Notes under the pieces: generated by a model
Told to the model about the DNA's origin: nothing
Seen by the model: the letters and a program-made list of their open reading frames with translations, nothing else
Databases searched by the model: none
Position numbers and translations under genes: made by a program
Shown here: one piece after another, positions 14,233 to 30,590 of the stretch
Layout: each line of letters opens with the position of its first letter
Numbering within the stretch: position 1 is the stretch's first letter
NCBI GenBank assembly: GCA_016867835.1
Contig: VGIQ01000001.1
Location: 10,094-74,093, forward strand
Direction of reading: 5' to 3'
Source: Calditrichota bacterium
GTDB lineage: Bacteria; Electryoneota; AABM5-125-24; Hatepunaeales; Hatepunaeaceae
DNA length: 64,000 nt

Positions 14233-14299
14233 CCACAAAGAACACAAAGATCACAAAGATCATAGGGAATACTTGGTGTTCTTTGTGCTCTTCGTGGTG
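14230..14299. repeat. palindromic gene-junction repeat (AACTAACCACAAAGAACACAAAGA ... TGTTCTTTGTGCTCTTCGTGGTG), copy 1
   Basis: Imperfect 25-bp inverted repeat with an 18-bp loop. It begins within the stop codon of the upstream gene. The same family occurs at 16884, 17825, 18661 and 24202. Confidence 0.7.
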
Positions 14300-14310
14300 A
14301 AAAGGAAAAA

Positions 14311-15264: not shown

Positions 15265-15702
15265 GTGCATTGGAGTGGAATTAGGGATGGAAAATCCCCA
15301 ATGAGAGCAATCCCAAAGCGCTTGCCTAAAACTAAGCCTCATTCCGTCAATTTCGCCCGCAGCCTACGCCGTAAGATGACTGACGCCGAGCGGCGGCTGT
15401 GGGCAAGGCTGCGGTCAGGGCGAATAAGCGCCAAATTCCGGCGTCAGGAGCCTATCGGATCTTACATCGTGGACTTTGCTTGCATAGAAAGAGGATTGGT
15501 CATAGAACTTGACGGCTCGCTGCATTACACCGATGAAGGCAAGAAGAGGGATGAAGTTCGGGACGCCTACCTGCGGTCGTTGGGATTCATGGTGTTGAGG
15601 TTCTCAGATCGGGATGTGATGAACAATATCGAGGGGGTATGTCAGGCGATCCTTGAGCAAGTTCAATGGAAAAACGAAGAAAAGGAAGAGTCAGGAAAAT
15701 GA
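15265..15702 (+). CDS. DUF559 / Vsr-like endonuclease-domain protein
   Basis: MTDAERRLWARLR ... KFRRQEPIGSYIVDFACIERGLVIELDGSLH is the DUF559 signature. Lower GC than neighbours. The start could be M at 15301. Confidence 0.7.
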   Translation: MHWSGIRDGKSPMRAIPKRLPKTKPHSVNFARSLRRKMTDAERRLWARLRSGRISAKFRRQEPIGSYIVDFACIERGLVIELDGSLHYTDEGKKRDEVRDAYLRSLGFMVLRFSDRDVMNNIEGVCQAILEQVQWKNEEKEESGK

Positions 15703-16886: not shown

Positions 16887-17366
16887 CCACAAAGGCACAA
16901 AGAACACAAAGACTTTCTTGTCATAAATGATAGAGATCATTCCTGAGGATATAGACCTGACCGGCAAGAATTTGTTGATGCGGCCTTTCAGGTTCACAAA
17001 GCGCTTGGGTCGGGGCTTCTTGAATCAGCCTACGAATCCTGCATCGCGCATGAGATTGTGTCGCGAGGGCTCGATGACAAGACGCAGGTGATTCTTCCCG
17101 TCATCTACAAAGGAGTCAGGATCGATGCGGGATTTCGATTGGATTTGGTCGGCGAAGACAAGGTCATGTCGAACTGAAGGCGGTAGAAGAACTCCACCTG
17201 ATTCGTGAAGCACAATTGATCACATATCTTCGACTCTCGGGCATTCGGCTTGGTTTCCTAATGAATTTCAACGCTAAACTTATTAAGAACGGAATTAGGC
17301 GAATTGTAGTATGATAAGTTTCCTCGAAACATATTCTTAGTGTTCTTCGTGCTCTTTGTGGTAACA
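16884..17366. repeat. palindromic gene-junction repeat, copy 2, with halves split by a ~420-bp insertion (GxxExxY pseudogene)
   Basis: Left half ACCACAAAGGCACAAAGAACACAAAGA at 16887-16913. Right half TTAGTGTTCTTCGTGCTCTTTGTGGTAAC at 17338-17366. The two halves are reverse complements. Confidence 0.65.
16927..17330 (+). pseudogene. GxxExxY-family (PD-(D/E)xK nuclease-like) gene disrupted by at least two frameshifts
   Basis: Frame 1 gives AAFQVHKALGSGLLESAYESCIAHEIVSRGL ... RIDAGFRLDLVGEDKV, then a stop. The conserved continuation VELKAVEELHLIREAQLITYLRLSGIRLGFLMNFNAKLIKNGIRRIVV is in another frame. The N-terminal DLTGK... is also out of frame. Confidence 0.6.
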
Positions 17367-17827: not shown

Positions 17828-17875
17828 CCACAAAGAGCACAAATAGCACAAAGAAATGTGATTTTGTGATCTTTA
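17825..17875. repeat. palindromic gene-junction repeat, copy 3 (degenerate right half)
   Basis: AACTAACCACAAAGAGCACAAATAGCACAAAGAAATGTGATTTTGTGATCTTT. Confidence 0.5.
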
Positions 17876-17899: not shown

Positions 17900-18667
17900 A
17901 TGGATTCCCATTATATCAAGATCGATCCGGACGACCACCGCCTCGACATCATTCTCTCCCATCCACCCGTCAACATTCTGACTGGCGCGGTGATGAAGGA
18001 GATGATCCGAGTTTTGCAGGACGCCTCCTCCGATCCCCACCTGCGAGCCGTCGTCATTCGGTCTGAGGGGAAAGCCTGGTCGGCCGGGGCGGACGTGAGT
18101 GAACACCTGCCCGGGCAGTTTGAACCCATGCTCGACACCTTCGGCGAATTGTGCGAACTGGTGCGCACCTATCCGGTGCCAACCGTTGCTGCGGTGGACG
18201 GGCTCTGCCTTGGCGGCGGCTGTGAACTGGCGCTAATGTGCGATTTTGTACTGGCGTCGGAGCGCGCCAAGTTCGGTCAGCCGGAGATCAAAGTCGGTGT
18301 CTTCCCTCCCGCGGCTTGTGCCCATTTCGCGATGAAGATGGGCTGGCAGAACGCGATGGAGGTGATCCTGACCGGGGATGTCTTCAGTGCAGAAGACGCA
18401 GCAAAAATGAAATTGGCAACGAAGGTGTTTCCGGTGGATCGTTTTTCGGACGAAGTGGACCGATTCGTTGACCGGATCATTTGCAACAGTGGAGTTGTCC
18501 TTCGAGTGGCAAAGAGAGCGGCGCTCGAAGGGATGCGCCTTTCGCCCGAAATGGCGGCACAGGAATCGGATCGCATCTATCGGCAGGAACTGATGACGAT
18601 GGCGGACGCGGTCGAGGGGCTAAACGCCTTTATGGAAAAGCGCGAACCAAACTGGAAAGACAACTAA
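17900..18667 (+). CDS. enoyl-CoA hydratase/isomerase (crotonase family; candidate dienoyl-CoA hydratase)
   Basis: RAVVIRSEGKAWSAGADV and GLCLGGGCELALMCDFVLASE are crotonase oxyanion-hole motifs. 255 aa. Confidence 0.8.
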   Translation: MDSHYIKIDPDDHRLDIILSHPPVNILTGAVMKEMIRVLQDASSDPHLRAVVIRSEGKAWSAGADVSEHLPGQFEPMLDTFGELCELVRTYPVPTVAAVDGLCLGGGCELALMCDFVLASERAKFGQPEIKVGVFPPAACAHFAMKMGWQNAMEVILTGDVFSAEDAAKMKLATKVFPVDRFSDEVDRFVDRIICNSGVVLRVAKRAALEGMRLSPEMAAQESDRIYRQELMTMADAVEGLNAFMEKREPNWKDN

Positions 18668-18725
18668 CCACTAGGCACGCAAAGAGCGCCAAGAATTCTT
18701 TGTGGTCTTTGTGTTCTTGGTGGTA
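18661..18725. repeat. palindromic gene-junction repeat, copy 4
   Basis: AACTAACCACTAGGCACGCAAAGAGCGCCAAGAA ... TTCTTTGTGGTCTTTGTGTTCTTGGTGGT. Confidence 0.6.
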
Positions 18726-18738
18726 AAAAGAGGCCGAA

Positions 18739-20025
18739 GTGTTTTCTCAATTCAAATCCTGGTATGAAGAACGGCACGCTTACGCTAAAGGGTGGAAGGC
18801 GCGCACCGGCGGCAAAGTGATGGGCTGCTTTTGCAGTTATGCCCCCGAGGAAATCCTCGTCGCGGCGAACTGGCTCCCGGCGCGCGTGTTAGGCGGTCAC
18901 CAGCCCCAGGACGTCGCCGAAAAATATATGTTCGGGATGTATTGTCCCTTTTCCCGCGACGTCCTGGCGCAAGGGCTTAAAGGGCGCTACGACTATCTCG
19001 ACGGCATCCTGCTGACGCAAAGTTGCATTCACCTGCGGCAGTCGTTCAACTCATGGCAGATGCACGTTCCGGTGCCGTTCAATTACTACATCTATATGCC
19101 GCAGAAGGTTCAGACGCCTCATGCAGTGCCCTATCACCGGAGCGAACTGGCGAAGTTTCGCGCGGCTCTGGAGGCCTACGACGGGACAACGCTAAGTGAA
19201 GACGACCTGAACCGCGGCATCGCCGTCGTCAACGAGAACCGCCGCTTGATGCGCGAAGTCTATGAGTTTCGCAAAGGCGACAGCCCCAAGGTGACCGGCA
19301 CCGAAGCGATGTGGATGACCACCTCGAGCATGTGGGTTGATAAGGAGGAACATTCCGCCGAACTGCGGCGGGTGCTGAAGGAACTGCCCAACCGAAGCCT
19401 TACCCGCCAGACCGGGGCGAAATTGATGATCATCGGCTCGGAGAACGACGACATCCCGTTCATCGAGATGGTCGAAAAGGTCGGCGCGACGGTGGTGATG
19501 GACGAACACTGCACCGGGACGCGGTATTTTTGGAATCAATGTGAGGTTCCCCCCCTTCAATCCCCCCCGCTCAGCGGGGGGGAAGTGCGCGAGGATAAAT
19601 CCCCCCCGCTTAGCGGGAGGGAAGTGCGCGAGGATAAATCCCCTCCGCTTAGCGGGAGGGAAGTGCGCGAGGATAAATCCCCCCCGCTTAGCGGGGGGGA
19701 CGAGAAGGGGGGGCGCGACCTGATGACCGCGATCGCCCAGCGCTACATCGACCGCCCGACCTGCCCGGTGAAAGACTGGGAGGATCGCACCCGCTTCGAG
19801 CATATCCTGCGTCTGGCGCGGGAGTGGGAGGTGCAAGGCGCCATCATCATCCAGCAGAAGTTCTGCGACCCGCACGAGTGCGACATGGTGCCGCTAAGAG
19901 CCTTCCTGAACGAGCACGACATCCCGAACCTGATGCTCGAGTTCGACGCTACCACGCCGCTGGGGCCGTTTAGGATCAGGGTAGAAGCGTTCTTGGAGAT
20001 GATCGGGCAGGAGGAGTTGTTTTGA
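18739..20025 (+). CDS. 2-hydroxyacyl-CoA dehydratase / benzoyl-CoA reductase subunit family protein (HgdB/BcrB-like), carrying an in-frame 4x13-aa repeat insertion
   Basis: GTG start. Family-typical Cys-containing N-terminal region (GCFCSYAPEEIL ... LTQSCIHLRQS) and C-terminal FCDPHECD. 428 aa. Confidence 0.65.
   Translation: MFSQFKSWYEERHAYAKGWKARTGGKVMGCFCSYAPEEILVAANWLPARVLGGHQPQDVAEKYMFGMYCPFSRDVLAQGLKGRYDYLDGILLTQSCIHLRQSFNSWQMHVPVPFNYYIYMPQKVQTPHAVPYHRSELAKFRAALEAYDGTTLSEDDLNRGIAVVNENRRLMREVYEFRKGDSPKVTGTEAMWMTTSSMWVDKEEHSAELRRVLKELPNRSLTRQTGAKLMIIGSENDDIPFIEMVEKVGATVVMDEHCTGTRYFWNQCEVPPLQSPPLSGGEVREDKSPPLSGREVREDKSPPLSGREVREDKSPPLSGGDEKGGRDLMTAIAQRYIDRPTCPVKDWEDRTRFEHILRLAREWEVQGAIIIQQKFCDPHECDMVPLRAFLNEHDIPNLMLEFDATTPLGPFRIRVEAFLEMIGQEELF
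19552..19712 (+). repeat. 4 tandem copies of a 39-bp unit (AAGTGCGCGAGGATAAATCCCCCCCGCTTAGCGGGAGGG) inside the CDS, each containing a CCCCCGC-TTAG-GCGGG hairpin
   Basis: Translates in frame as SPPLSGGEVREDK / SPPLSGREVREDK x4. Copies differ at 1-2 positions. The hairpin core is identical to the intergenic repeats at 15070-15250. Confidence 0.8.
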
Positions 20026-20026
20026 A

Positions 20027-20068
20027 TGTAGAATGCAGAATGTAGAATGTAGAATGAGGAACGAGGGT
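20027..20068. repeat. short tandem repeat (GAATGTAGAAT)n
   Basis: gaatgtagaatgcagaatgtagaatgtagaatgaggaacgagg lies directly after the stop of the preceding gene. Confidence 0.6.
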
Positions 20069-20137
20069 TATTGCTTTGGAGGGGTATAGGTGTTATCTTT
20101 CAGAAAATCAGAATTTCTGAACGGTAGAGGGATTACA

Positions 20138-20407
20138 ATGAAAGTTCAACTACGTTCGAGACGCCAGATCACGCTTCCGGAAGAGGCGGTCAGCGAGTTG
20201 GGAATCAATGAGGGGGATGAGTTCATCGTGAAAGTCGAGGGCGATTCGCTGCGCCTGCTGCCGGTCGTTACCATTCCTCGGGATGAAGCCTATCTCTTCA
20301 CACCGGAATGGCAGAGGGCGCTTCAAACCGCCGAGAAGGAACTGCGCGAGGGCGAATACGAGACCTTCGCGAGCGTCGATGACCTGCTGAAGGACCTGAA
20401 CGACTGA
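20138..20407 (+). CDS. AbrB/MazE/SpoVT-family antitoxin
   Basis: MKVQLRSRRQITLPEEAVSELGINEGDEFIVKVEGDSLRLLPV is a swapped-hairpin AbrB-type motif. The ORF could start at 20090. Its stop overlaps the next start (ATGA). Confidence 0.6.
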   Translation: MKVQLRSRRQITLPEEAVSELGINEGDEFIVKVEGDSLRLLPVVTIPRDEAYLFTPEWQRALQTAEKELREGEYETFASVDDLLKDLND

Positions 20408-20673
20408 TGCAGATCATCCGGCTGAGTCAATTCAAGCGGATGTGGAAGAAACTGCCTGCGGACGTTCAGGCGAGGGCAGCGAAAGCGATCCGCCTGCTTG
20501 CCGCCGACCGGTCGCATCCGTCGCTTGGCTTGAAGCGGCTGCAACGGCTGCCTCAATACTTGGAGGTGCGCATCGACCGCGACCACCGGTTGATATGCCA
20601 GATGGGGAGCGAGGTTATCGTGCTGGTGGCGGTAGGGAGGCATGAGGTGTTGGGGAGGGTGAGGCAAAAGTGA
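20407..20673 (+). CDS. RelE/ParE-superfamily toxin (type II TA)
   Basis: 88-aa basic protein translationally coupled to the antitoxin. The pattern LPADVQARAAKAIRLLAAD ... YLEVRIDRDHRLI ... VLVAVGRHE resembles the RelE/ParE fold. Confidence 0.5.
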   Translation: MQIIRLSQFKRMWKKLPADVQARAAKAIRLLAADRSHPSLGLKRLQRLPQYLEVRIDRDHRLICQMGSEVIVLVAVGRHEVLGRVRQK

Positions 20674-20737
20674 AGCTAAACATCATCATTCCTTCGGAAG
20701 ATGGAATTCAGATCTACATTTCTTTGTAAAAACAGGA

Positions 20738-21742
20738 ATGAAGGCACTTTATTCAAATTGCATTTTCTGCGGCTGCGACTTAGACGAGACCAATAGATCT
20801 CGCGAGCATATCGTTCCACAGATCATAATGGGATCATTCATCAGTCAAGATGTCTGCAGATGCTGTAACAGCAAATTGAGCGAGGCGGATAAGCTTATAC
20901 TGAATGATCCACGGATTATTCAAGCTATAAACTGTCTTGAACTTTCTGATATTCAAAATAACATCCTGAGAATAGGTGAAACCATAGGAACAGATACACA
21001 GGATGGCGCCGAAAGAAGGTTTCATATGAAGGATGGGCACCCTATACTTATTCCCAAGCCATCTTTTACGGGTGAAAGAGTCGCGGATATAGATAACACC
21101 TTGCCTCTACTGCGCACATTGTTATCCAGAGACAAGGAGCTGAATTGGCCAAACGAAAAGGCAGGCCGATACATCGGTGAAATCGTAACGCCAGAATTTC
21201 TCAAACTCAAGCCGCATGAGAGTATCGATCTTCGAGAAGCGGGATACTCAATCGAAATGAGGCAGATTGGAAACATAGAGACACATTTTCCTGCCATTTC
21301 GTTTCAAGATCATAGATTGATCGCTAAAATAATATACGAGATCAGTTTCTATCTGCTTTCGCCCGAGATCGCTGAGTCAGCGATGAAAGATCTTGACTAT
21401 TATAGAGATGTAGCTTACGGAAGTATTGAAAGAGAAGAAGGCAGATTGTTTACAAGATCGGTGGAGCTTCTTAACGAACCCAACTATCTTCATAGGATTC
21501 AGATCTCATTCTCTGCCTCAAGCTTTCTTACGGTTGACATCGACCTCTTTGCAAGTGTAAACTATCACGCTATCATCAGAACTGATAGAACCTATCCGCT
21601 GCCAATTCTAAATTCCCGGCAGGTTACCGCTGTCGGGTTGGGGATGACCTTTAACGATACATCGAATAGACACTTTGCGATAAGGTACTTCAATGATGCA
21701 GATTGGGCGGTCGAAAGATTCGATGACGGAGAAGAACAGTGA
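20738..21742 (+). CDS. HNH-endonuclease-domain protein with ~270-aa uncharacterised C-terminal region
   Basis: CIFCGCDLDETNRSREHIVPQ ... CRCCNSKLSE is the HNH motif (CxxC, catalytic His in EHIVP, second CxxC). 334 aa. The region is markedly AT-richer than the window. Confidence 0.65.
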   Translation: MKALYSNCIFCGCDLDETNRSREHIVPQIIMGSFISQDVCRCCNSKLSEADKLILNDPRIIQAINCLELSDIQNNILRIGETIGTDTQDGAERRFHMKDGHPILIPKPSFTGERVADIDNTLPLLRTLLSRDKELNWPNEKAGRYIGEIVTPEFLKLKPHESIDLREAGYSIEMRQIGNIETHFPAISFQDHRLIAKIIYEISFYLLSPEIAESAMKDLDYYRDVAYGSIEREEGRLFTRSVELLNEPNYLHRIQISFSASSFLTVDIDLFASVNYHAIIRTDRTYPLPILNSRQVTAVGLGMTFNDTSNRHFAIRYFNDADWAVERFDDGEEQ

Positions 21743-22890
21743 CAATATCAACCCAAATGATCAATACTTGGACAGCTTCTTGGAAGCAACTGAGATACCT
21801 CGAGCGAGTGGGAGCATTACTTGCCATAGCAACTCTGACCGCCTCCTTATTTTATTGGGCGGGGAATGGATTCGCCGAGATACAAAATACACTTGGCTAC
21901 TATCCATCTGGAGTTGAAGAAGCGCTAGAGCAAAACCGCGAACTGGACCTAAAATATCCAACACGCCCGGGTCTAAGCAAGGATCTGGGAGAGGTTGCGG
22001 GAGTCTTGCTTTTCTTCATCGGAATTTGTCTAATCTTGTCATTGATTGATGCAGCCGTGAAATTGCCAATCTTGGCGGGATTGTTGGTCGCCCCAATATC
22101 TTTCCTATCGGGCAAGGGAACCACACATGAATACCTCATTCTATCCTTGCTCAACAATAACGCTATTGGTGGCAGAGGCGTGCTTTCACTTATCATGATA
22201 ACGCTTTCCGGAGTATTTGCGATGAGGGCTTTTCGGAAATCTTGGAGATTAAATTTCTCATTGCTAACTGCACTTGGAGTATTCGCGTCTTGGATAGGTA
22301 ATTTCATGGGTCAAGAATACAGCTATCGCGCCGGTATTTTGACGGCAGCTGCTGGAATTCTCCTTATCATAGCGCCAAAATCACTTAGGGATTCTTGTCT
22401 GACTTCCATCGAAGTGACTGGCGAAATATCTAAAGGTAGGCTTGACAGCTTGATTCAAAAAGCCACATTGTCTACCAGAATATTTGGCATTGCCTATTCT
22501 ATTCTTGGGCTTATTCTTGTTCTGGGAGTTGCAGGAACTATGGGAGATGAGTTTCTACAAGGAATCAAGAGAGGGGCACCTGTTAGTGATTCAAGCGGAA
22601 TCTTAGTGCTGGCCGTCATTCAGATATTGATAGGGATAGCTTTGCTTATGCTCTCTTTGATATCATCTAATCCAGCAATGCGGCGTCGATATCAGTTTTC
22701 CATCATCATAGGGATCATCTGGATCTTATTGCCTTATGAGGCACTTGACTTGTTAGCCCGATTGACCGATCCCGGCTTAAATGCTTTTGTAAAACTGTTG
22801 ACGTCTATTGGAATGATTATTGTACTCAAGACCGCAATTAGAGCTCGGGACGCCATTTATATGAATGTCAGCAATTCCAAGGAAACATAA
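21739..22890 (+). CDS. polytopic membrane protein (about 8-10 predicted TM helices), unknown function
   Basis: GTG start overlapping the upstream stop (GTGA). Repeated hydrophobic helices (VGALLAIATLTASLFYW, VLLFFIGICLILSLI, LPILAGLLVAPISFL, ILLIIAP, IFGIAYSILGLILVLGVAG, ILVLAVIQILIGIALLMLSLI, IIIGIIWILLPY, IGMIIVL). Low GC. Confidence 0.6.
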   Translation: MTISTQMINTWTASWKQLRYLERVGALLAIATLTASLFYWAGNGFAEIQNTLGYYPSGVEEALEQNRELDLKYPTRPGLSKDLGEVAGVLLFFIGICLILSLIDAAVKLPILAGLLVAPISFLSGKGTTHEYLILSLLNNNAIGGRGVLSLIMITLSGVFAMRAFRKSWRLNFSLLTALGVFASWIGNFMGQEYSYRAGILTAAAGILLIIAPKSLRDSCLTSIEVTGEISKGRLDSLIQKATLSTRIFGIAYSILGLILVLGVAGTMGDEFLQGIKRGAPVSDSSGILVLAVIQILIGIALLMLSLISSNPAMRRRYQFSIIIGIIWILLPYEALDLLARLTDPGLNAFVKLLTSIGMIIVLKTAIRARDAIYMNVSNSKET

Positions 22891-22911
22891 TCCGCATCAT
22901 TCGGAATACTA

Positions 22912-24204
22912 ATGTCCACCTACCCCACCGAACCCCTGAAGTGCTGGGCTAAAGCCAAGGAACTTCGGGATAACTACTATCGCGACTACGCCACCGCCCA
23001 CGAGTGCGGCGGGTTGCGCTGGACCGGCGGCGCTTGGTCGTTCGACGCCATCCCCGCCGGGCTAGGGCGCGACGTCTGGCCCATCACCGGCGAGCCTTAC
23101 GGCGCGTCGATGGCCTTCAACAAGCCATTCAGCCAGCGCGCCCTCGAAGCCGCCGAAGCCAAGGGCTGGGCGCGCGATCTCTGCAGTTATATGCGCAACT
23201 ACTGGGGGTCGATGTATCTCGACGAGTTCAACTTCGGCGGGAAGTATCCGAAGCCCGACTTCGCCTTTCAGGATCATATCTGCTGCTCCCACGCCAAGTG
23301 GTATCAGCATGTCGCGGAATACAAGCAGATCCCCTACTTTTGTATCGACGTTTCGGTCGGTCCCTATCACCTGATCGACGACCACAAACTGAACTTCGTC
23401 GTCGGGCAGATGCACGAGTCGATTGACTTCCTCGAGCGCATCACCGGCCGCCGCTACGACGACGAACTGCTGATCGAAGCGGTGCAGAACGAGACGCGAG
23501 CCACCTCCGCCTGGGCCGAGGTCTGTGCCCTCAACAAGGCGATCCCGGCACCGCTCGACGAAAAGACGATGTATTCGCTCTACGTCCTCGGGACGCTCAA
23601 CAAGTCGAAGAAGGAGTTCGCCGACTTCTACGAGGAATTGCGGGACGAGGTTGCCGACCGCGTGGCGCGCGGCATCGCTGCCGTTCCGAGCGAGCGTTGC
23701 CGGCTGATGTCCGATACCCAGCCGCCGTGGGGCTTCTTGAAGATATTCCGCTACCTCGAAGGCTTCGGCGCGGTCTCGGTCGGGAGCCTTTACACCTTCG
23801 CCCTAATCGGCATCTGGGAAGAGAAGCCGGACGGCAGTTGGGGCGCGCGGACAACTCCGATGGCCCTCGGCTTGCCGATGGATACCCGCGATCAGGCGCT
23901 CCGGATACTGGCGGACTGGAACCTCTCCAAACCCGAATGGCAGCATTTCTATGACGCAAGTTTGAAGTCGAAGATGATGCTGCGGATCGTCAAGGAATGG
24001 AAACTCGACGGCGTCATGCTGCACCTGAATCGCGGCTGCGAAGGCCTCTCCTGCGGCATAATGGAAAACCGCCTCGCCATCGCCGAAGCCGGCGTGCCGG
24101 TGATGACCTTCGAAGGCAATATGGGCGACGAGCGGGAGTTCGACGAAGCGAAGACCAAAGACCGCATGGATGCGTTCATGGAGACGCTGGGACTTAGGAA
24201 TTAA
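22912..24204 (+). CDS. 2-hydroxyacyl-CoA dehydratase / benzoyl-CoA reductase subunit family protein (HgdA/BcrC-like)
   Basis: [23 protein letters not shown] and [10 protein letters not shown] are Cys-motif regions typical of the HGD-D family. 430 aa. Confidence 0.65.
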
Positions 24205-24270
24205 CCACAAAGAACACAAAGATCACAAAGATATCCTGGTGCTCTTGGTGTGCTTTGTGGTGAGAATAAT
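24202..24270. repeat. palindromic gene-junction repeat, copy 5
   Basis: AATTAACCACAAAGAACACAAAGATCACAAAGA tatcc TGGTGCTCTTGGTGTGCTTTGTGGTGAG. Confidence 0.65.
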
Positions 24271-24286
24271 CATTAGGGATAGATAA

Positions 24287-25084
24287 TTGATTACAGCCGG
24301 ACTTGACCTGGGGTCGAAGACCACCAAGGTCGTCATCCTGCGCGACGGCGAAGTGCTGGCTCGCGTGAAGCGGTTTTCGGGGTTCGAACAAGAGGTCGTC
24401 GCGGCTGAAGCCTTGCGGGAAGCCTGCGCCCTCGCTGGCATCGCCGAGAGCGAACTGTCCCGTATCGCGGCAACCGGAGCCGGCCGCCGGGTAGCGCCAT
24501 TCGCGCAGGATCTCCTGACCGAGGTAGGCGCCGCGGCGCGGGGCGCCATCGCTCGCAACGACGCAGTGCGCACTGTGCTCGACGTTGGAGCCGAGGAAGG
24601 ACGCGCCATTCTGGTCAATCCCGACGGCCGGGTGAAGGACTTTGCGGTCAATGAGAAGTGCGCCGCCGGAGCGGGCACGTTTATCGAGTCGATGTCGCGC
24701 GCCCTCGAAGTGAAACTCGAGGAGTTCGGCCCGCTCGCGCTGACTTCGCAGCAGGCGGTGCCGATGAATGCCCAATGCGCAGTATTCGCCGAGAGCGAGG
24801 TGGTATCGCTGCTCCACGCCCGGACGCCGAAGCAGGACATCGCTCGCGCAGTGCTCGACGCCATCGCCAGCCGCATCGTCTCGATGGCCCGGCGAGTCAG
24901 CATCACACCGGCGGTCGTGCTAATGGGAGGGATGGCTCACAATACCGGCTTCATTGTATCGCTGAAGCGGACGCTCGAGATGGAGATCGAAATCCTATCC
25001 GATCCTGAGTTTGTCCCGGCCGAGGGAGCCGCGTTCCACGCCGCCGAGCGCTTTGCCGAAGCCGAAGTGCCGGCGGTGGCGTAG
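24287..25084 (+). CDS. BadF/BadG/BcrA/BcrD-type ATPase (dehydratase activator / reductase ATP-binding subunit), copy 1
   Basis: MITAGLDLGSKTTKVVIL is the acetate/sugar-kinase-fold N-terminus. NEKCAAGAGTFIE is the [4Fe-4S]-bridging Cys region. 265 aa. Non-ATG (TTG) start. Confidence 0.75.
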   Translation: MITAGLDLGSKTTKVVILRDGEVLARVKRFSGFEQEVVAAEALREACALAGIAESELSRIAATGAGRRVAPFAQDLLTEVGAAARGAIARNDAVRTVLDVGAEEGRAILVNPDGRVKDFAVNEKCAAGAGTFIESMSRALEVKLEEFGPLALTSQQAVPMNAQCAVFAESEVVSLLHARTPKQDIARAVLDAIASRIVSMARRVSITPAVVLMGGMAHNTGFIVSLKRTLEMEIEILSDPEFVPAEGAAFHAAERFAEAEVPAVA

Positions 25085-25085
25085 G

Positions 25086-25135
25086 AAGTAAGCGGGTAGG
25101 CGAGTAAGCGGGTAAGCGGGTAAGTGAACAGGCGG
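25086..25135. repeat. short tandem repeat (GTAAGCGG / GTAAGCGAG)n
   Basis: gtaagcgggtaggcgagtaagcgggtaagcgggtaagtgaac. An inverted copy of the motif lies at 25530-25550 (cttactcgcttactc). Confidence 0.6.
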
Positions 25136-25144
25136 GAGTAGAAA

Positions 25145-25521
25145 ATGGGGACGGTCTTCAGGAAGGTGGAGGATATAGAGGTCTGGAAGCGGGCATGCAG
25201 GCTTGCGGTCGATCTCTATTCCCTCTGCGATCAGGAGCCGCTCGCCAAGGATTGGGGGCTTCGAGATCAGTTGCGGCGTGCGGCAGTTTCCATTGCATCG
25301 AACATCGCGGAGGGATATGAGCGAAACTCGCAAGCGGAATTCAGGAGATATCTCTTGATCGCCAAAGGTTCCTGCGTGAATTGAAGACGCAACACTACAT
25401 CCTGCAGGCATCCGGTAAGATTAGCGAGGCAGATTTGACAACCCTGATCGAACGCTGCATAGAACTATCTCAGATGATCGGCAGCCTCGCCTCCGCCATT
25501 CGCAAACAACATCTTGCATAA
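25145..25521 (+). pseudogene. four-helix-bundle (23S rRNA intervening-sequence-type) protein gene with a -1 frameshift
   Basis: The ORF ends ...[16 protein letters not shown]. The conserved continuation [43 protein letters not shown] is in the next frame (shift at about 25375-25381). Confidence 0.5.
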
Positions 25522-25568
25522 TAACTAACGCTTACTCGCTTACTCATTCAAATCAACAACAGTCCGCA

Positions 25569-26459
25569 TTGGAGGAGTCAGCAATGTCAGTCGAATACTG
25601 GCGGTGGAAGGAATACAACTGGCGCAACGAAGCGGTCGATCCGCGCGGCGGAGGCATCCTCTCCGGAGGCGTCGATGTCGGATCGGTCTCATCGCAGGCG
25701 GTGGTGCTCTACGAAGGCAATCTCTACGCCTACAGCAATATGCGCACCGGCTCCGACTCGCCTGACAGCGCCCGCAAGGCGTTCGAGTGGGCGCTCGAAG
25801 GCACGGGACTGCAGGTTGGCGATATCCCCTTCATTGTCGGCACCGGTTACGGGCGGGTCAATGTGCCGTTTGCTCATAAAGCCATCACCGAGATTGCCTG
25901 TCATGCCCGCGGTGCCAATTATATGTATGGCCCGGCTGTCCGGACGCTGCTCGATATGGGCGGGCAGGACTGCAAGGCGATCCGCTGCGACGAACGGGGC
26001 AAGGTGACGAACTTCCTGATGAACGACAAGTGCGCTGCCGGGACCGGACGCGGGATGGAAGTCTTTGCCGATTTACTCGCAATCCCCATTGAGCAGGTCG
26101 GCGAAATGTCGTTCCAGGTCGAGAGCGAGCCGACGCCGGTCTCTTCGACCTGTGTCGTCTTCGCCAAGACCGAAGCCGCCGGGCTGCTCCGGTCCGGCTG
26201 GCCGAAGAACCTTGTCCTCGCGGCCTACTGCTCGGCGATGGCGCATCGCGTCGTTTCGCTGATCGAGCGGCTCGGTATGGAAGGCGGGTTCGCGATCACC
26301 GGCGGCATTGCCAAGAACAGCGGCGTCGTCCGGCGCCTCGAAAAGGAACTCGGCGTTACCTCGATGACCAGTTCCTACGACACTCAGATCGCGGGTGCGC
26401 TCGGCGCGGCACTATTTGCGAAGGCGCTGCTTGAGAAGGGCTTGGGGCTCAAGGCTTAG
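25569..26459 (+). CDS. BadF/BadG/BcrA/BcrD-type ATPase, copy 2 (distinct paralogue)
   Basis: GVDVGSVSSQAVVL and NDKCAAGTGRGME. 296 aa. The likely start is ATG at 25584 (MSVEYW). Confidence 0.75.
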   Translation: MEESAMSVEYWRWKEYNWRNEAVDPRGGGILSGGVDVGSVSSQAVVLYEGNLYAYSNMRTGSDSPDSARKAFEWALEGTGLQVGDIPFIVGTGYGRVNVPFAHKAITEIACHARGANYMYGPAVRTLLDMGGQDCKAIRCDERGKVTNFLMNDKCAAGTGRGMEVFADLLAIPIEQVGEMSFQVESEPTPVSSTCVVFAKTEAAGLLRSGWPKNLVLAAYCSAMAHRVVSLIERLGMEGGFAITGGIAKNSGVVRRLEKELGVTSMTSSYDTQIAGALGAALFAKALLEKGLGLKA

Positions 26460-26484
26460 GGCTCAAGATCACTCAAGGGGTGAG

Positions 26485-26870
26485 ATGATGTCAAGGGACT
26501 ACCGGAAACTTCGGGTATTTCGATCGGCGCAAAGTCTTGCCCTTATGGTCTATGAATCGACCAGACTATTTCCAAATGAAGAGTTGTTCGGAGCAACGAA
26601 CCAATTGCGCCGGGCAGCGCTATCAGTTCCAACTAACTCCGTTGAGGGCTCTCATCGCACCAGTCGCGGAGATTGCTTGAGATTCCTCGACGTTGCGATG
26701 GGGTCGCTTGCAGAAACTGGATACCTGATCGACTTCGCTGCCAGTCTCGGCCATTTGCCGCAAGACAAACGGGACAATCTGCTTGCCCAATAGACTGAAT
26801 GCGCCCAACTCCTCGGCGCGCTTATCAATTCACACCGCAGGGCGAATGATTCCAAAATTCTTAAGCCCTG
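26485..26870 (+). pseudogene. second four-helix-bundle (IVS-type) protein gene, interrupted by an in-frame TAG at 26791-26793
   Basis: MMSRDYRKLRVFRSAQSLALMVYE ... NSVEGSHRTSRGDCLRFLDVAMGSLAETGYLIDFA is the family core. The reading frame continues after the TAG (TECAQLLGALIN...) as the expected C-terminal helix. Confidence 0.45.
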
Positions 26871-26905
26871 AACCTTAAGCCTTAAGCCCTAAGCCATGAG
26901 CCTAA
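26860..26905. repeat. short tandem repeat (CTTAAGCC)n
   Basis: cttaagccctgaaccttaagccttaagccctaagccatgagcc. Confidence 0.6.
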
Positions 26906-26906
26906 T

Positions 26907-27188
26907 ATGATCGCCAACTACGGCTACACCGATGGATCGGGCAGTTACTACATCACTATCGACACCGACCGATGTGCCACCTGCGCCGAACACTCCTGCA
27001 CCCAAGCCTGTCCGGTTGGGATGTTCGTCGTCGAGCCGGACGACTATGACGATGACGTCGCCTCGATAGGCACCACCTTCCGGCACAACATCAAGTATGC
27101 CTGCGCACCCTGCAAGCCGGTAGCAAATCGGCCGCCGCTGCCTTGCGCAGCGGCTTGCAAAGCCGGCGCAATAAGCCACTCGTGGTAG
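26907..27188 (+). CDS. ferredoxin-like Cys-rich protein (8 Cys; probable 2x[4Fe-4S])
   Basis: CATCAEHSCTQACP plus CAPC ... CAAAC. 93 aa. Sits directly upstream of a ferredoxin-oxidoreductase-like gene. Confidence 0.55.
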   Translation: MIANYGYTDGSGSYYITIDTDRCATCAEHSCTQACPVGMFVVEPDDYDDDVASIGTTFRHNIKYACAPCKPVANRPPLPCAAACKAGAISHSW

Positions 27189-27189
27189 T

Positions 27190-27252
27190 GGCAAGTATTA
27201 AGTATCAAGTGCCAAGTATCAAGTATCAAGTGCCAAGTATCAAGTATCAAGT
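27190..27252. repeat. short tandem repeat (CAAGTATCAAGTG)n
   Basis: gtatcaagtgccaagtatcaagtatcaagtgccaagtatcaagtatcaagtgtcaagtg. The same motif occurs at 29735-29770 and 61823-61852. Confidence 0.7.
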
Positions 27253-27257
27253 GTCAA

Positions 27258-29732
27258 GTGGGCCGGATAACCATTGTTGTTGATGGGCGGGAGGTCGAGG
27301 TTCAGACGGGCGGCCGCCTGAGACTCGAACTGATCGCGTCCGGCATCTACTTGCCCGGACTGTGCGATCATCCCGACCTTGATCCATTTCGGCCCTTCCA
27401 ATGGTCTGAATCGGTCTGGCGGGGAAATGCAGAATACGGAATGAGGAATGAGGAAGGCGGACTTGATGATGGAACACTGCATTCCAGCCACCTCAATCCG
27501 CACTGCGACCTCTGTCTGGTCTCCATTGAGGGCGTCGGGCTGGTGCGGTCGTGCGATGCGATCGTCCGCGAGGGAATACGCGTCCGGACTAATGGCGACG
27601 ATATCACCCGGGCGCGTCGAGACGCTTTGAAGGCGATCCTCGCCCGTCATCCCCACGCCTGCCTTACCTGCGCCCAACGGCACGGCTGCGACCGACTCAG
27701 TTGCAGCATGAACGTTCCGGTCCTCGAACGCTGCTGTGAATTGCTGGGCCGCTGCGAGATCGGCCGGGTCTCGGAGTGGGTAGGCATCCCTCCTGATACG
27801 CCTCCCTATCGCAATGAAGGTCGTCCTGCCGTAATCGATGAACCGCTCTACCTGCGCGACTACGAACTTTGCATTAGTTGCACCCGCTGCGTCCGCATAT
27901 GCCGCGACGTCCGCGGCGTCGATGCGCTCGGCGCGTCGATCGTCAAATCGGGTGTTGTCGTCGGGACGAACGAACCGACACTTGCCGACTCGGACTGCCG
28001 CTTCTGCGGCGCCTGTGTCGAAGTTTGCCCCACCGGCGCCTTGCGCGACAAGCCCGGGATAGCGCCTCTGATAGAAGGGCAGGCGCCTTGCGTGGAATCG
28101 TGCCCGCTCGGTATCGACATCCCCGGCTACCTCGCTGAAATCGCGGCTGGTCGTCCTTTGAATGCGTTAGAGATCATTCGCGACCGCGCTGCGCTGCCGG
28201 GCGTGCTCGGCTACGCCTGCTTTCATCCCTGTGAAGCGAACTGCCGCCGGACGGCGCTCGGCGAGCCAGCCTCGATCTGCCTCCTGAAGCGGTTCGCCAG
28301 CGACGTTGCAAGCGAATGTGAAGTCCACGCGCCTAAAGTGCCTCCGTCCGGTCGCCGGGTGGCCATCGTCGGCTCCGGGCCGGCCGGTCTGGCCGCTGCC
28401 TATGACCTCTTGCGGATGGGCCATGCGGTCACGGTCTTCGACCGCAATGCCCGCCCCGGAGGGATGCTCCGTGAAGCGATTCCCAACTTCCGTCTGCCCG
28501 ATGCGGTCATCGACCGCGATCTGAAATATCTCAAAGACCTGGGAATGGGTTACCACCCCGGCGGGGAGTTGGGACGCGATTTCACTCCTGAAGACCTGCA
28601 CGATTTGAATTTCGACGCTCTGTTAGTGGCAATAGGGCTGAGTCAGACTGCCCGGCTCGGTGTGCCCGGCGAAGAGCATCCTGCAGTAATTAGAGGGCTT
28701 GACTTTCTAAGGTCCATTTCAAGCGGGAATCCCCCCGAACTGGAGGGTGATGTCATTGTGGTGGGCGGAGGCGCGGTGGCGGTCGACTGTGCGATGAGCG
28801 CGCTCCGGGTTGGCGCGTCGAATGTCCGCATGGTCTGCCTTGAAAGCCGTGAAGAGATTCCGGCGCATCCCGACGAACTCCGTCTGGCGCAGGACGAGGG
28901 GATCGCCATCGATTACGGCTGGGGCGTCGAGTCATTCAACGTCCGGGACGACGAATTGACCGGTATCCGACTGAAGAAGTGCACCCGCGTCTTCGACCCC
29001 GCCGGTCGGTTCAGCCCGCTCTATGATACTACGACCACGAAAGACCTCCCCGTCCGGAGTGTGATCGTCGCCATCGGGCAACGGCTTGGGATAGACCGCC
29101 GGTTTCTGACCGGTAAGGGATTGTTCACTTGCGGGGATATGGTTACCGGACCGACGACCATCGTCGAAGCGATGGCGGATGGACGTCGCGCCGCACGAGA
29201 GGTTGACCGGTTTCTGGGCGGCAAGGGCGAAGTGTCGAAGAGTATTGCCAGGTCAGCCGGGGGCAGCCTTGGTCGCATCGGCGGCTTTGCAAGCCTTGAC
29301 CGCTCACACCCTCTGGAACAGCCTGTTTCGGAGCGCACCACCAACTTCGACCCGATCCAGGTCGGCTTCGACGATAGTGCAGCCCGCCTGGAAGCAAGCC
29401 GCTGCCTGCAGTGCCATTTGCGCGCCAGGATCAGTCCCTCACCTTTGCCTCCGGATGAATGGCGCCGGTTCAAACCCGAAATGGTTGACGACGTGCCGGC
29501 ACTCGAGGGCGTCCTGATTCTTGCCGATGCCGACCGCAAGACGATTCGTATTAGCGGCGCCTCGGACCTGAGAACCCTCTTCCGTGAAGCCCACCACGAA
29601 AATCCCGATGCCGTATGGTGCCGGTGGGAGATAGATCCGCTCTATACCAAACGGGAGTCGGAACTCCTCGCGGCGCATCTGGCTGCGCACGGCGCGATGC
29701 CGGTGTCGGGGGAATTGGATGATCTCTTCTGA
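27258..29732 (+). CDS. multidomain iron-sulfur flavoprotein: NuoG/HoxU-like 2Fe-2S N-terminus + 2x[4Fe-4S] ferredoxin + GltD/NfnB-like FAD/NAD(P)H oxidoreductase (candidate ferredoxin:NAD(P)H oxidoreductase)
   Basis: GTG start. N-terminal GRITIVVDGREVEV ... CDHPDL. 4Fe-4S motifs CISCTRCVRICRD and CRFCGACVEVCPTG. Dinucleotide folds RVAIVGSGPAGLAAAYDL and VIVVGGGAVAVDCAMSA. 824 aa. Confidence 0.65.
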   Translation: MGRITIVVDGREVEVQTGGRLRLELIASGIYLPGLCDHPDLDPFRPFQWSESVWRGNAEYGMRNEEGGLDDGTLHSSHLNPHCDLCLVSIEGVGLVRSCDAIVREGIRVRTNGDDITRARRDALKAILARHPHACLTCAQRHGCDRLSCSMNVPVLERCCELLGRCEIGRVSEWVGIPPDTPPYRNEGRPAVIDEPLYLRDYELCISCTRCVRICRDVRGVDALGASIVKSGVVVGTNEPTLADSDCRFCGACVEVCPTGALRDKPGIAPLIEGQAPCVESCPLGIDIPGYLAEIAAGRPLNALEIIRDRAALPGVLGYACFHPCEANCRRTALGEPASICLLKRFASDVASECEVHAPKVPPSGRRVAIVGSGPAGLAAAYDLLRMGHAVTVFDRNARPGGMLREAIPNFRLPDAVIDRDLKYLKDLGMGYHPGGELGRDFTPEDLHDLNFDALLVAIGLSQTARLGVPGEEHPAVIRGLDFLRSISSGNPPELEGDVIVVGGGAVAVDCAMSALRVGASNVRMVCLESREEIPAHPDELRLAQDEGIAIDYGWGVESFNVRDDELTGIRLKKCTRVFDPAGRFSPLYDTTTTKDLPVRSVIVAIGQRLGIDRRFLTGKGLFTCGDMVTGPTTIVEAMADGRRAAREVDRFLGGKGEVSKSIARSAGGSLGRIGGFASLDRSHPLEQPVSERTTNFDPIQVGFDDSAARLEASRCLQCHLRARISPSPLPPDEWRRFKPEMVDDVPALEGVLILADADRKTIRISGASDLRTLFREAHHENPDAVWCRWEIDPLYTKRESELLAAHLAAHGAMPVSGELDDLF

Positions 29733-29780
29733 GACTCCAAGTATCAAGTATCAAGTGTCAAGTATCAAGAGCAGAGAGCA

Positions 29781-30354: not shown

Positions 30355-30483
30355 GGAATGTATCGCGAAATCGGCTTCGAGGTGATGATCGTCCCTTTCG
30401 ACCCGGTAGAGTGCGAAGGCTGCTGCAAGGAGTGCTTCAGCGAAGGCGAGTCGGGGGCGATGGTAGTCTATACGAAGAAGTGA
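30355..30483 (+). CDS. small Cys-rich ORF (42 aa; CEGCCKEC) of unknown function
   Basis: MYREIGFEVMIVPFDPVECEGCCKECFSEGESGAMVVYTKK. A longer ORF from 30223 overlaps the GNAT gene in another frame. Weak call. Confidence 0.2.
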   Translation, partial: GMYREIGFEVMIVPFDPVECEGCCKECFSEGESGAMVVYTKK

Positions 30484-30590
30484 GCGAGTAAGTGAGTAAG
30501 CGAGTAAGCGAGACATTTTCGCCTATGCTCCCACAAACTCGGCTGCCCGCACACTCGTTCACTCGTCTACTCGCTCACTCGCACACTTTC
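30481..30590. repeat. inverted pair of (GAGTAAGC)n short tandem repeats flanking a 36-bp spacer
   Basis: gagtaagtgagtaagcgagtaagcgag ... cactcgttcactcgtctactcgctcactcgc. Confidence 0.6.

Follow-up and report, generated by a model that had tools for sequence, protein, structure and literature searches.

To our knowledge, the function of the S23p/Avd-like four-helix-bundle family has been unknown for all its members since the 1990s. One described setting of these genes is the intervening sequence (IVS) of 23S rRNA. In Coxiella burnetii, the 23S IVS is 428 nt long, carries an S23p open reading frame (ORF) with upstream tandem heptamers (GACAGAT), is closed by a 28-bp terminal stem and is excised by RNase III; the authors described its ORF as 'undergoing reductive evolution' (PMC4990558). 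The S23p family has the motif (G)xxRxxxSxxxNxxE (PMC3936711), and 23S_rRNA_IVP genes have also been noted in the literature inside cas loci.

Two interrupted genes of this family are analysed here within the window, the whole stretch of 64,000 nt of Calditrichaeota DNA that was analysed. We consider it probable that two IVS-type cassettes of about 460 bp were inserted in a bzd operon, and that the ORF of each was recently inactivated by one unprogrammed lesion in the course of birth-and-death turnover. Each cassette would consist of a 7-8-nt tandem array, a ribosome-binding site, a four-helix-bundle gene of about 125 codons (S23p/XCC0516/Avd-like) and the reverse-complement array. The cassettes would have entered the ATPase1-ATPase2 and ATPase2-ferredoxin spacers of this genome in sense orientation, after which each ORF would have been hit once, by a 1-nt deletion in copy 1 and by a nonsense substitution in copy 2; purifying selection would keep the family intact, while individual resident copies would be expendable and decay.

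The cassettes resemble the 23S rRNA IVSs of Coxiella and Leptospira (PMC4990558) in size (~460 bp against 428 nt), in the PF05635 ORF that occupies the loop in the sense orientation of the host transcript, in the terminal inverted repeats that make a long stem, in the tandem 7-8-nt repeats between stem and start codon, and in that the ORF decays and the element persists. Unlike the IVSs, they lie between protein-coding operon genes and not in helix 25 or 45 of 23S rRNA, and their arms are themselves tandem arrays. Excision by RNase III is proven for the rRNA IVSs, whereas for these cassettes we only infer it.

The family also belongs to the same fold superfamily as Avd of the diversity-generating retroelements (DGRs), and relatives carry precomputed PF22296 bAvd matches. 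However, unlike Avd of DGRs, the cassettes lie within a catabolic operon. No reverse transcriptase was found among the operon genes scanned, including the immediate neighbours (bzd or other non-RT genes), and no template/variable repeat pair was noted. An assignment to DGR Avd was dropped, copy 2 scoring 17.3 bits against DivGenRetAVD where the cut-off is 80.

Further, short repeated or palindromic spacer sequences include REP/BIME elements, MITEs and the STRR heptamers of cyanobacteria, some of which help to stabilise or process parts of an mRNA, and MITE-like 'empty' forms are found side by side with forms that carry an ORF. The cassettes differ from these in that no conserved genome-wide consensus was seen and the arm unit varies between clades of the element.

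Host operon and its spacers

The features of the locus are listed below in order of position.

24287-25084, + strand: first BcrAD/BadFG-type ATPase of the bzd-type benzoyl-CoA reductase operon (PF01869, 161 bits); stop codon TAG
25087-25136, + strand: cassette 1 5′ arm, tandem array of the (GTAAGCGG)-type 8-mer (TRF period 8, 4.6 copies at 25088-25124)
25145-25384, + strand: cassette 1 ORF part A, 79 aa, helices 1-3 (PF05635 positions 1-69, 88.2 bits); premature TGA
25376-25377, + strand: lesion 1, one base lost from an ancestral Gly codon (GGN, now GT), placed by homologue alignment
25378-25521, + strand: cassette 1 ORF part B in the -1 frame, ELKTQ...KQHLA (PF05635 positions 69-105); TAA at 25519-25521
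25529-25545, + strand: cassette 1 3′ arm, (CGCTTACT) x2, reverse complement of the 5′ arm (TRF and inverted repeat)
25584-26459, + strand: second BcrAD/BadFG-type ATPase (PF01869, 184 bits); stop codon TAG
26437-26468, + strand: cassette 2 5′ arm, (GGCTTRGGGCTCAAG) tandem array (TRF: (GGCTTAGGGCTCAA) x2.1 at 26439-26467)
26488-26793, + strand: cassette 2 ORF to the in-frame stop (PF05635 positions 1-95, 85.2 bits)
26791-26793, + strand: lesion 2, in-frame TAG; homologues have Tyr or Gln/Arg at or beside this column
26794-26871, + strand: cassette 2 ORF remainder, TECAQLLGALINSHRRANDSKILKP, helix 4; 25 codons, then TGA at 26869-26871
26859-26903, + strand: cassette 2 3′ arm, (CTTAAGCC)-type array (TRF and inverted repeat), ending 3 nt before the ferredoxin start codon
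26907-27188, + strand: small BzdM-like ferredoxin (Fer4 matches weak; its place after ATPase 2 is conserved in orthologous operons)

Gene order around ATPase 1 is likewise kept in the orthologous operons, and the two spacers are much longer in the window than in these operons. In particular, the ATPase1-ATPase2 spacer measures 499 nt, against an estimated median of ~9 nt (n = 134 orthologous operons, 4 of which exceed 250 nt), and the ATPase2-ferredoxin spacer measures 447 nt, against ~25 nt (n = 108, with 5 above 250 nt). Because the corresponding spacers are normally short in the 108-134 orthologous operons, both four-helix-bundle genes are, on this comparison, inserts. The second insert reaches into its neighbour: the orthologues of ATPase 2 have a C-terminus of ...LLEKG followed by 1-3 residues, and in the window the final five codons (LGLKA) and the TAG of ATPase 2 are supplied by the 5′ arm of cassette 2.

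A scan of both cassettes for promoters and terminators returned no credible internal promoter, and no terminator-like stem with a T-run at either arm; with neither of their own, the cassettes are therefore presumably co-transcribed with the operon. On reading the sequence, no direct duplication was evident at the cassette ends and no transposase lies inside a cassette. The sole transposase-like match was a weak Y1_Tnp ORF in a neighbouring spacer of L165, and no transposase or mobility gene was identified. The PADLOC defence models gave no match, and Rfam at its gathering thresholds gave no rRNA or other RNA family anywhere in the window.

Cassette arms and predicted RNA structure

An earlier note on this DNA had reported short tandem repeats flanking both genes, and TRF does find arrays on each side of both. 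What the earlier note overlooked is that each downstream array is the reverse complement of its upstream partner, which turns both inserts into IVS-like hairpin cassettes.

The arms of cassette 1 share 17 nt at 94% complementarity, and those of cassette 2 share 32 nt at 81% (5′ arm against 26859-26890). This complementarity is beyond chance, because only 2 of 500 dinucleotide shuffles for cassette 1, and none of 500 for cassette 2, reached the observed duplex energy. In the predicted folds of 25080-25560 (z = -3.79) and 26430-26910 (z = -4.29), the terminal arm stem closes both the MFE and the centroid structure, and no shuffle folded equally well. The same anatomy recurs at the other loci checked where both flanks of a four-helix-bundle gene were available, all 13 of which have a tandem array upstream and its complement downstream.

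Tentatively, and with slightly less than even confidence, we suggest that the arms pair in the operon mRNA and that RNase III cuts the resulting stem, as it does in 23S rRNA IVSs; the polycistronic transcript would then be split and the ORF would become dispensable. A G-U wobble test comparing sense and antisense arm stability showed no asymmetry (8/16; Wilcoxon p = 0.78); the sense arms do not surpass the antisense arms in stability, so strand asymmetry lends no support to a role of the stem at the RNA level, and arm complementarity could instead serve a function at the DNA level. Stop triplets, whose enrichment in the 5′ arm would suit a part in terminating the upstream ORF, were more numerous in 5′ than in 3′ arms (68 vs 45; the 5′ arm is richer in 9 cassettes and the 3′ arm in 4; p = 0.086), an excess that is a trend only and is driven by the GTAAGCG clade.

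Two interrupted four-helix-bundle genes

By their profile matches, both copies are members of the PF05635/TIGR02436 four-helix-bundle family (S23p, 23S rRNA IVS protein), for which the cut-offs are 33.8 bits and 24 bits, respectively. Copy 1 and copy 2 both contain the RxxxSxxxNxxE part of the family motif (in copy 2 as RAALSVPTNSVE), with the leading Gly off the stated spacing. Neither copy has an uninterrupted ORF of about 115-130 codons with four helices, and both are pseudogenes, or truncated genes, of the family.

In copy 1, part A is read in frame 0, ends in ...AKGSCVN* and appears in public data as a 79-aa protein (P0009). The junction reads GSCGELKTQ in 11 of 11 close homologues, none of which is interrupted there; lesion 1 is therefore the loss of one G from a GGT/GGN codon. 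When the two parts are joined, they match TIGR02436 over positions 1-107 of 109 with 115.9 bits, and the repaired protein matches XCC0516 of Xanthomonas campestris (PDB 2GSC) across residues 6-122 (E = 2.3e-15). Part B retains all of the invariant residues E79, L80, T82, Q83, Y85, I86, L101, S109 and L115. The -1 frameshift between GSCVN* and ELKTQ that had been reported at 25145-25521 is thus upheld by the two-frame PF05635 match and by the homologue junction.

In copy 2, the in-frame TAG that had been reported is confirmed, and the accompanying bounds of 26485-26870 need correction: the end lies 1 nt further, at 26871, and the start is probably the second ATG at 26488, and not 26485, because homologues begin MSRDY. 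NCBI annotates the gene from 26485 as a 102-aa 'four helix bundle protein' of a Calditrichaeota MAG, and the copy is 100% identical to P0121. All 12 close homologues are uninterrupted at the site of lesion 2, and a change of TAY or CAG to TAG at this column would be one mutational step. With X placed at the stop, copy 2 matches TIGR02436 over positions 2-108 of 109 (87.8 bits), and its helix 4 keeps the invariant C106, L110 and L113 and the near-invariant I114. Because every family-invariant residue downstream of either lesion is still present, the lesions appear to be recent and single. XCC0516 is the structural representative of S23p; as they stand, the window copies cannot form the full bundle.

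Sequencing error and recoding

If the lesions were errors of sequencing or assembly, both genes would be intact in the organism. In favour of such errors are the origin of the sequence, a contig assembled from a metagenome, and the presence of four apparently broken small genes in a single window; several observations nevertheless leave this reading with a very slim chance. A Logan contig seen in 2 runs (L001) is 100% identical to 24203-27229, a stretch of 3,027 bp that includes both lesions; the Logan and JGI/NCBI assemblies may share the same or related samples and are not fully independent. Lesion 1 falls within a GG dinucleotide, lesion 2 replaces one base by another, and neither site is a homopolymer, so that the homopolymer errors proposed earlier are disfavoured. 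Further, 48 long host ORFs of the window, amounting to 49.3 kb, are unbroken, whereas at least five frame breaks are found in the accessory genes, which total about 2 kb, and unrelated assemblies of related cassettes show similar lesions. Because of the Logan identity, the absence of homopolymers at the lesions and the unbroken host ORFs, sequencing error is an unlikely source of the lesions.

The earlier note had counted four small accessory genes in the window as each disrupted by a single lesion. This description fits both four-helix-bundle copies and the DUF3800 gene (4652-5323, minus strand), which has one frameshift; it does not fit the GxxExxY gene (16927-17330), which has at least two.

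Regulated recoding, which had been suggested as a less likely explanation, would make a controlled, low amount of full-length protein from each gene, through a programmed -1 frameshift for copy 1 and through amber read-through or suppression for copy 2. Slipping back by one nucleotide after TGC would indeed restore a product of normal length (GSC-R-ELKTQ), all invariant residues downstream of both lesions are intact, and among copy-2-like cassettes three nonsense codons lie at the helix 3/4 boundary, no more than 4 codons apart. However, the X XXY YYZ heptamer is absent from the 64-nt frame overlap (25321-25384), TAG is the stop codon of 15 of the 48 host ORFs, both neighbouring ATPase genes among them, and no tRNA gene lies within the window. 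Across the affected cassettes, the lesions vary in profile position (26, 35, 76, 81 and 101) and the stops in identity (TAG, TGA and TAA), and in one relative (L171) a polymorphism of a single base separates the stop from an intact allele. Detection bias is expected to account in part for the clustering of late stops, as only late truncations still yield a findable protein; in addition, the local sequence abounds in codons for Gln, Glu and Tyr, each a single step away from a stop. Recoding is thus disfavoured, and we regard it as highly improbable; reassignment of TAG was considered and dropped.

Related cassettes and their lesions

Decay recurs among the cassettes of operons found through the host ATPase, where the broken ones number 5 out of 12, or 3 out of 10 when the window copies are left aside. 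In particular, the cassettes of L086/L089 carry TAG at profile position 81, that of L088 has TGA in place of Cys at position ~26, and L115a has a frameshift at position ~35; the window lesions fall at positions 76 and 101, and all affected cassettes differ in the type and position of the lesion. A relative of copy 2 exists both with a nonsense codon and without it: L171/L172 (TAA) and L177 (CAA, encoding the intact P0125) differ by one base in 390 nt, on contigs that are 98.6% identical. In the contigs searched, no intact same-species allele of either window copy was found, and an exact or gapped DNA pattern over lesion 1 gave 0 matches in the JGI metagenome contigs, a collection without the source contig. 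Scans of genome and metagenome contigs with the ATPase protein returned a best relative with only 75-83% identity, and no same-species locus.

Pairwise comparisons of the four-helix-bundle genes, including pairs of now-broken copies, gave dN values of 0.10-0.53 with saturated synonymous sites; as this saturation affects every pair, a dN/dS ratio cannot be computed and we state only that dN is far below dS. Qualitatively, the substitution pattern points to purifying selection on the ORFs before the lesions arose. The earlier proposal of ongoing pseudogenisation of selfish inserts is supported by the short orthologous spacers, the retained invariant residues, the scattered lesions in relatives and the pair of intact and nonsense alleles. 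Cassettes in the HGD-D/ATPase1 spacer persist in hosts whose ATPases are only 70-80% identical, with their ORFs under purifying selection; for these, a long-lived and possibly useful resident fits as well as a purely selfish insert.

An improbable alternative, though less so than error or recoding, is that the truncated products still function, or that inactivation was itself selected, translation being harmful inside an essential catabolic operon. The 102-aa protein of copy 2, which NCBI annotates as normal, lacks only helix 4 and might still be active or serve as a variant form; all 5 broken ATPase-found cassettes have exactly one lesion in an otherwise well-conserved ORF; and stops have arisen three times independently at the helix 3/4 boundary within the clade of copy 2. 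However, helix 4 holds three invariant residues (C106, L110 and L113), the solved homologue 2GSC is a four-helix-bundle pentamer (PMC4990558), copy 1 is severed in the middle of the bundle, and the neighbouring GxxExxY gene has at least two lesions, as plain decay predicts.

Origin of the hairpins

One ORF-plus-arm family is found in several positions. Arms of the GT[A/G]AGCG[A/G] type are common to window copy 1, L088, L115a, L115b and L165, across three different spacers, and the clade of copy 2 has arms of the G[GA]CTNARG type, so that ORF clade and arm family covary across three spacers and several hosts. Because one such family occupies three different spacers, the cassettes would have moved by some route.

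The hairpins might instead be native to the operon, like REP/BIME elements or the RNase III sites of phages, with the four-helix-bundle and GxxExxY genes homing into, or swapping between, their loops. Empty hairpins made of units from the same families do occur in other spacers of the window, two of the CACAAAGA family (14232-14300 and 24204-24262) and one of the GTAAGCG family (30477-30588), their z values ranging from -2.9 to -5.4; related operons (L083, L087 and L088) have empty hairpins as well. Moreover, arms of the CACAAAGA family enclose a different type of gene, GxxExxY (16886-17360), and complementary arrays of this family flank an entire enoyl-CoA hydratase gene. The covariation of ORF clade and arm family, however, is as expected if the two move as one unit, and the empty hairpins could equally be ORF-deleted derivatives, with no loop remnants that decide the direction; MITEs, for comparison, derive from IS elements. 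On balance, native hairpins are an unlikely origin, and insertion of whole cassettes followed by decay of their ORFs remains our preferred account.

Implications

The two copies look like decaying copies of the selfish cassette that is known from 23S rRNA IVSs, a finding that is real but fairly ordinary. The anatomy of the rRNA IVS, a tandem-repeat stem and an ORF, is thus also present between protein-coding genes, for which no description was found in the searchable literature. It is possible, although we hold it doubtful, that IVS-type cassettes are a class of their own among mobile intercistronic elements, for the most part not yet described, in the operon spacers of Calditrichota, Zixibacteria and related bacteria of the FCB group. 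If so, ORF-plus-arm units would move between spacers, be co-transcribed and turn over fast, and the empty hairpins that they leave might be places where operon mRNAs are cut by RNase III or stabilised; the four-helix-bundle protein would be retained by element-level selection, since the cassette would require it in order to spread.

As regards annotation, the broken frames are genuine and confined to expendable cassettes; the genes should be labelled as pseudogenes and not taken as a sign of poor assembly. In a small space, the locus illustrates how the S23p/Avd-like family undergoes birth-and-death turnover in nature. Further, if RNase III does cut at the stems, processing and stoichiometry in an operon for anaerobic aromatic degradation would be shaped by the cassettes and by the empty hairpins derived from them.

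Two interrupted genes in the spacers of a bzd-type operon

The stretch from 25145 to 26871 lies entirely within a plus-strand operon with the gene arrangement of bzd-type benzoyl-CoA reductase clusters, an order shared by about 160 fetched genome and metagenome loci. The operon's members are:

22912-24204, plus strand, HGD-D subunit gene
24287-25084, plus strand, first BcrAD/BadFG ATPase gene
25584-26459, plus strand, second BcrAD/BadFG ATPase gene
26907-27188, plus strand, small ferredoxin gene
27258-29732, plus strand, large Fe-S/flavin oxidoreductase gene

Copy 1 of the four-helix-bundle gene is located between the two ATPase genes, and copy 2 is located 3′ of the second. In orthologous operons, the median length of the spacer between the ATPase genes is estimated at ~9 nt (n = 134; >250 nt in only 4) and that of the spacer between the second ATPase and ferredoxin genes at ~25 nt (n = 108; >250 nt in 5); the window's spacers are 499 and 447 nt. 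Judged by these lengths, both copies are inserts in operon spacers.

The earlier note had read a -1 frameshift in copy 1 and an in-frame TAG in copy 2, and both are confirmed. In particular, the 79-codon ORF of copy 1 (25145-25384) matches PF05635 positions 1-69, and the match continues over positions 69-105 in the -1 frame from 25378. Eleven close homologues are uninterrupted at the break and read GSCGELKTQ, and the lesion is therefore the loss of one G from a Gly codon. Copy 2 matches positions 1-95 up to the TAG (26791-26793), which is followed by 25 in-frame codons; where copy 2 has TAG, aligned homologues carry Tyr, or Gln/Arg at a neighbouring position, all of which lie a single substitution from TAG. 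After repair, copy 1 spans positions 1-107 and copy 2 positions 2-108 of TIGR02436 (109 positions in all), and all family-invariant residues 3′ of both lesions are retained. The lesions are single and recent.

Systematic homopolymer error, proposed as one explanation, is unlikely: neither lesion lies in a homopolymer, a Logan contig (SRR16108672, two runs) is identical to window positions 24203-27229 with both lesions included, and 48 long ORFs totalling 49.3 kb are unbroken in the window, where frame breaks are limited to ~2 kb of small accessory genes. The truncated products also appear in public data, as a 79 aa protein for copy 1 (P0009; JGI and Logan) and a 102 aa protein for copy 2 (P0121; from a 77,895-bp contig, named 'four helix bundle protein [Calditrichaeota bacterium]' at NCBI). 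Genome and metagenome contig searches found no intact allele of either copy on a same-species contig. On the assembled sequences, both lesions are real.

The claim that four small accessory genes carry single lesions stands for three, namely copies 1 and 2 and the DUF3800 gene (PF12686, E = 2e-10; 4546-5323, minus strand), which is antisense to its neighbours and has one apparent frameshift in its C-terminal third, its LQLADHLAG motif continuing in another frame. A window-wide TRF scan found no tandem repeat next to it. The fourth, a GxxExxY-type PD-(D/E)XK gene within a CACAAAGA-arm hairpin (16886-17360), carries two or more frameshifts, around 16972 and 17170.

Additional genes are inserted elsewhere in the operon. 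A 2.9-kb insert at 20026-22911 separates two HGD-D genes whose median spacer in orthologues is 28 nt; the GC3 of its HNH_5 and membrane protein genes is 0.43-0.44, versus ~0.7-0.8 for host genes. It contains:

20090-20673, AbrB-like gene and small partner gene
20738-21742, HNH_5 protein gene
21739-22890, membrane protein gene

An intact DUF559 (very-short-patch-repair-like endonuclease) gene at 15265-15702 is inserted among operon genes and overlaps the thiolase gene start by 37 nt. Further, the first HGD-D/BzdN-like gene (18739-20025) contains an in-frame tandem repeat at 19559-19700 (39 bp x3.6; 13 codons, PPLSGGEVREDKS) with a small palindrome in each unit; because orthologues align over only ~374 aa, the repeat is considered absent from them.

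Cassette anatomy

The short tandem repeats reported to flank both copies are borne out, and the upstream and downstream arrays are also mutually complementary:

25087-25136, cassette 1 5′ arm, (GTAAGCGG)n, complementary to 25529-25545
25529-25545, cassette 1 3′ arm, (CGCTTACT)2, complement of 25087-25136
26437-26468, cassette 2 5′ arm, (GGCTTRGGGCTCAAG)n, complementary to 26859-26903
26859-26903, cassette 2 3′ arm, (CTTAAGCC)n, complement of 26437-26468

Arm complementarity exceeds that of 498 of 500 dinucleotide shuffles for cassette 1 and 500 of 500 for cassette 2. When either cassette is folded whole as RNA, the predicted MFE and centroid structures are both closed by the terminal arm stem (z = -3.8 and -4.3 for cassettes 1 and 2; none of 100 shuffles folds as well). 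In cassette 2, the final five codons and the stop of the second ATPase gene are encoded within the 5′ arm, and the 3′ arm ends 3 nt upstream of the ferredoxin start. Neither cassette contains a terminator-like or convincing promoter-like site, and they should therefore be co-transcribed with the operon.

Three hairpins in the window, each formed by a tandem 8-9-mer array and the matching complement, have a loop that contains no ORF:

14232-14300, empty hairpin, z = -4.7
24204-24262, empty hairpin, z = -2.9
30477-30588, empty hairpin, z = -5.4

Their unit families (CACAAAGA, GTAAGCG) are those of the ORF-bearing cassettes, and similar empty hairpins occur in related operons (L083, L087 and L088); empty hairpins may have arisen from cassettes by ORF loss, or may have been there beforehand as landing sites.

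Other genes are also found between arrays. A complete enoyl-CoA hydratase gene (17900-18667) lies between (CACAAAGAG)n at 17829-17854 and the complementary (TCTTTGTGG)n at 18697-18724, whose duplex energy is better than that of 500/500 shuffles, and a ferredoxin gene in another operon (L125) is likewise flanked by complementary arrays. Direct, rather than inverted, (CAAGTAT)n arrays at 27187-27259 and 29738-29769 stand on either side of the 824-aa oxidoreductase gene and fold no better than shuffles.

Relatives in other operons

A six-frame scan of all fetched loci with the family HMM identified cassettes in other bzd operons, all on the operon strand. Seven are uninterrupted as far as visible (L003, L012, L087, L095, L125, L133 and L115b, the last extending past its contig end); L090, with only its first ~28 codons before the contig end, falls in neither the uninterrupted nor the broken group. 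P0005 and P0012, the intact relatives closest to copy 1, are likewise located in spacers of bzd-type operons. Wherever both flanks could be inspected, the upstream array is matched by a downstream complement. Moreover, GT[A/G]AGCG[A/G] arms are common to copy 1, L088, L115a, L115b and L165, in three different spacers, while the copy 2 clade (P0122, L171 and L173) has arms of the G[GA]CTNARG type; in these loci, the arm family co-varies with the ORF clade.

Cassettes also appear to change within a spacer. For example, the ATPases of L087 and L088 are 97% identical, whereas their same-spacer cassettes (L087:150-900 and L088:4109-4850) are only 65% identical (protein), which implies that cassettes are exchanged or replaced over time. 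The divergent tract takes in the final ~45 nt of the HGD-D gene on the 5′ side and stops ~8 nt short of the ATPase start codon, suggesting allelic replacement by recombination. Separately, the L165 operon, which has a GTAAGCG-arm cassette, contains between its two HGD-D genes a small ORF (L165:955-1446) that weakly matches a Y1 (IS200/IS605 or RAYT-type) transposase; this may offer a clue to the mobility of hairpin elements.

Decay versus recoding

Of the 12 cassettes found through the host gene, 5 are broken (3 of 10 if the window is excluded), with a single lesion apiece and no two lesions at one profile position:

L088, TGA replacing Cys, position ~26
L115a, frameshift, position ~35
Window copy 1, frameshift, position 76
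L086/L089, TAG, position 81
Window copy 2, TAG, position 101

Regulated recoding, by which such interruptions would be read through, is disfavoured by this scatter; in addition, the 64-nt frame overlap of copy 1 lacks a slippery heptamer, TAG terminates 15 of 48 host ORFs (both ATPase genes among them), and the window has no tRNA gene. Two copy 2 relatives, L171 and L173, have an in-frame TAA. Compared with the intact allele (P0125, L177), L171 carries one C-to-T change in 390 nt, on contigs that are 98.6% identical; by its sequence, this pair is pseudogenisation caught as polymorphism. Inter-cassette dN is 0.10-0.53 with synonymous sites saturated, also where both copies are now broken, indicating that the ORFs were under purifying selection until recently. 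Ongoing pseudogenisation of selfish inserts, the earlier note's first-listed explanation, is supported by the insert status, the scattered lesions and the intact/nonsense pair; as read from these loci, ORF decay is recurrent and unprogrammed.

The stops in L171:1376-1765 (TAA), L173:1501-1860 (TAA) and copy 2 (TAG; 26791) are independent, and their occurrence within four codons of each other, just ahead of the invariant helix 4 Cys, may reflect chance and detection bias, or truncation that is tolerated there.

Comparison with known systems and possible mechanism

Among described elements, the S23p-containing 23S rRNA intervening sequence (IVS) comes closest; the window cassettes have each of its anatomical features apart from the defining rRNA location, and Rfam identified no rRNA in the window. 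The Coxiella IVS is 428 nt long with a 28-bp terminal stem, has tandem GACAGAT heptamers 5′ of its ORF and is excised by RNase III, and its ORF is regarded by the authors as undergoing reductive evolution (PMC4990558). XCC0516 (PDB 2GSC) is homologous to the window protein (E = 2e-15), while Avd of diversity-generating retroelements is only a distant relative (17 bits versus a cut-off of 80). PF05635 genes among cas genes were noted earlier (PMC3936711), and the literature searched contained no description of hairpin arms outside rRNA. Copies 1 and 2 belong to a known family, were inactivated recently and lie in a known type of cassette, placed in an operon spacer instead of rRNA; a more novel reading, tentative and rather unlikely, is that these are mobile intercistronic hairpin cassettes forming a class of their own.

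A test for RNA-specific G-U pairing in the arms found no strand asymmetry, and a DNA-level role of the arms is therefore just as possible. At the RNA level, the arm stem would form in the operon mRNA; its cleavage by RNase III would then uncouple the cistrons and render the ORF dispensable.
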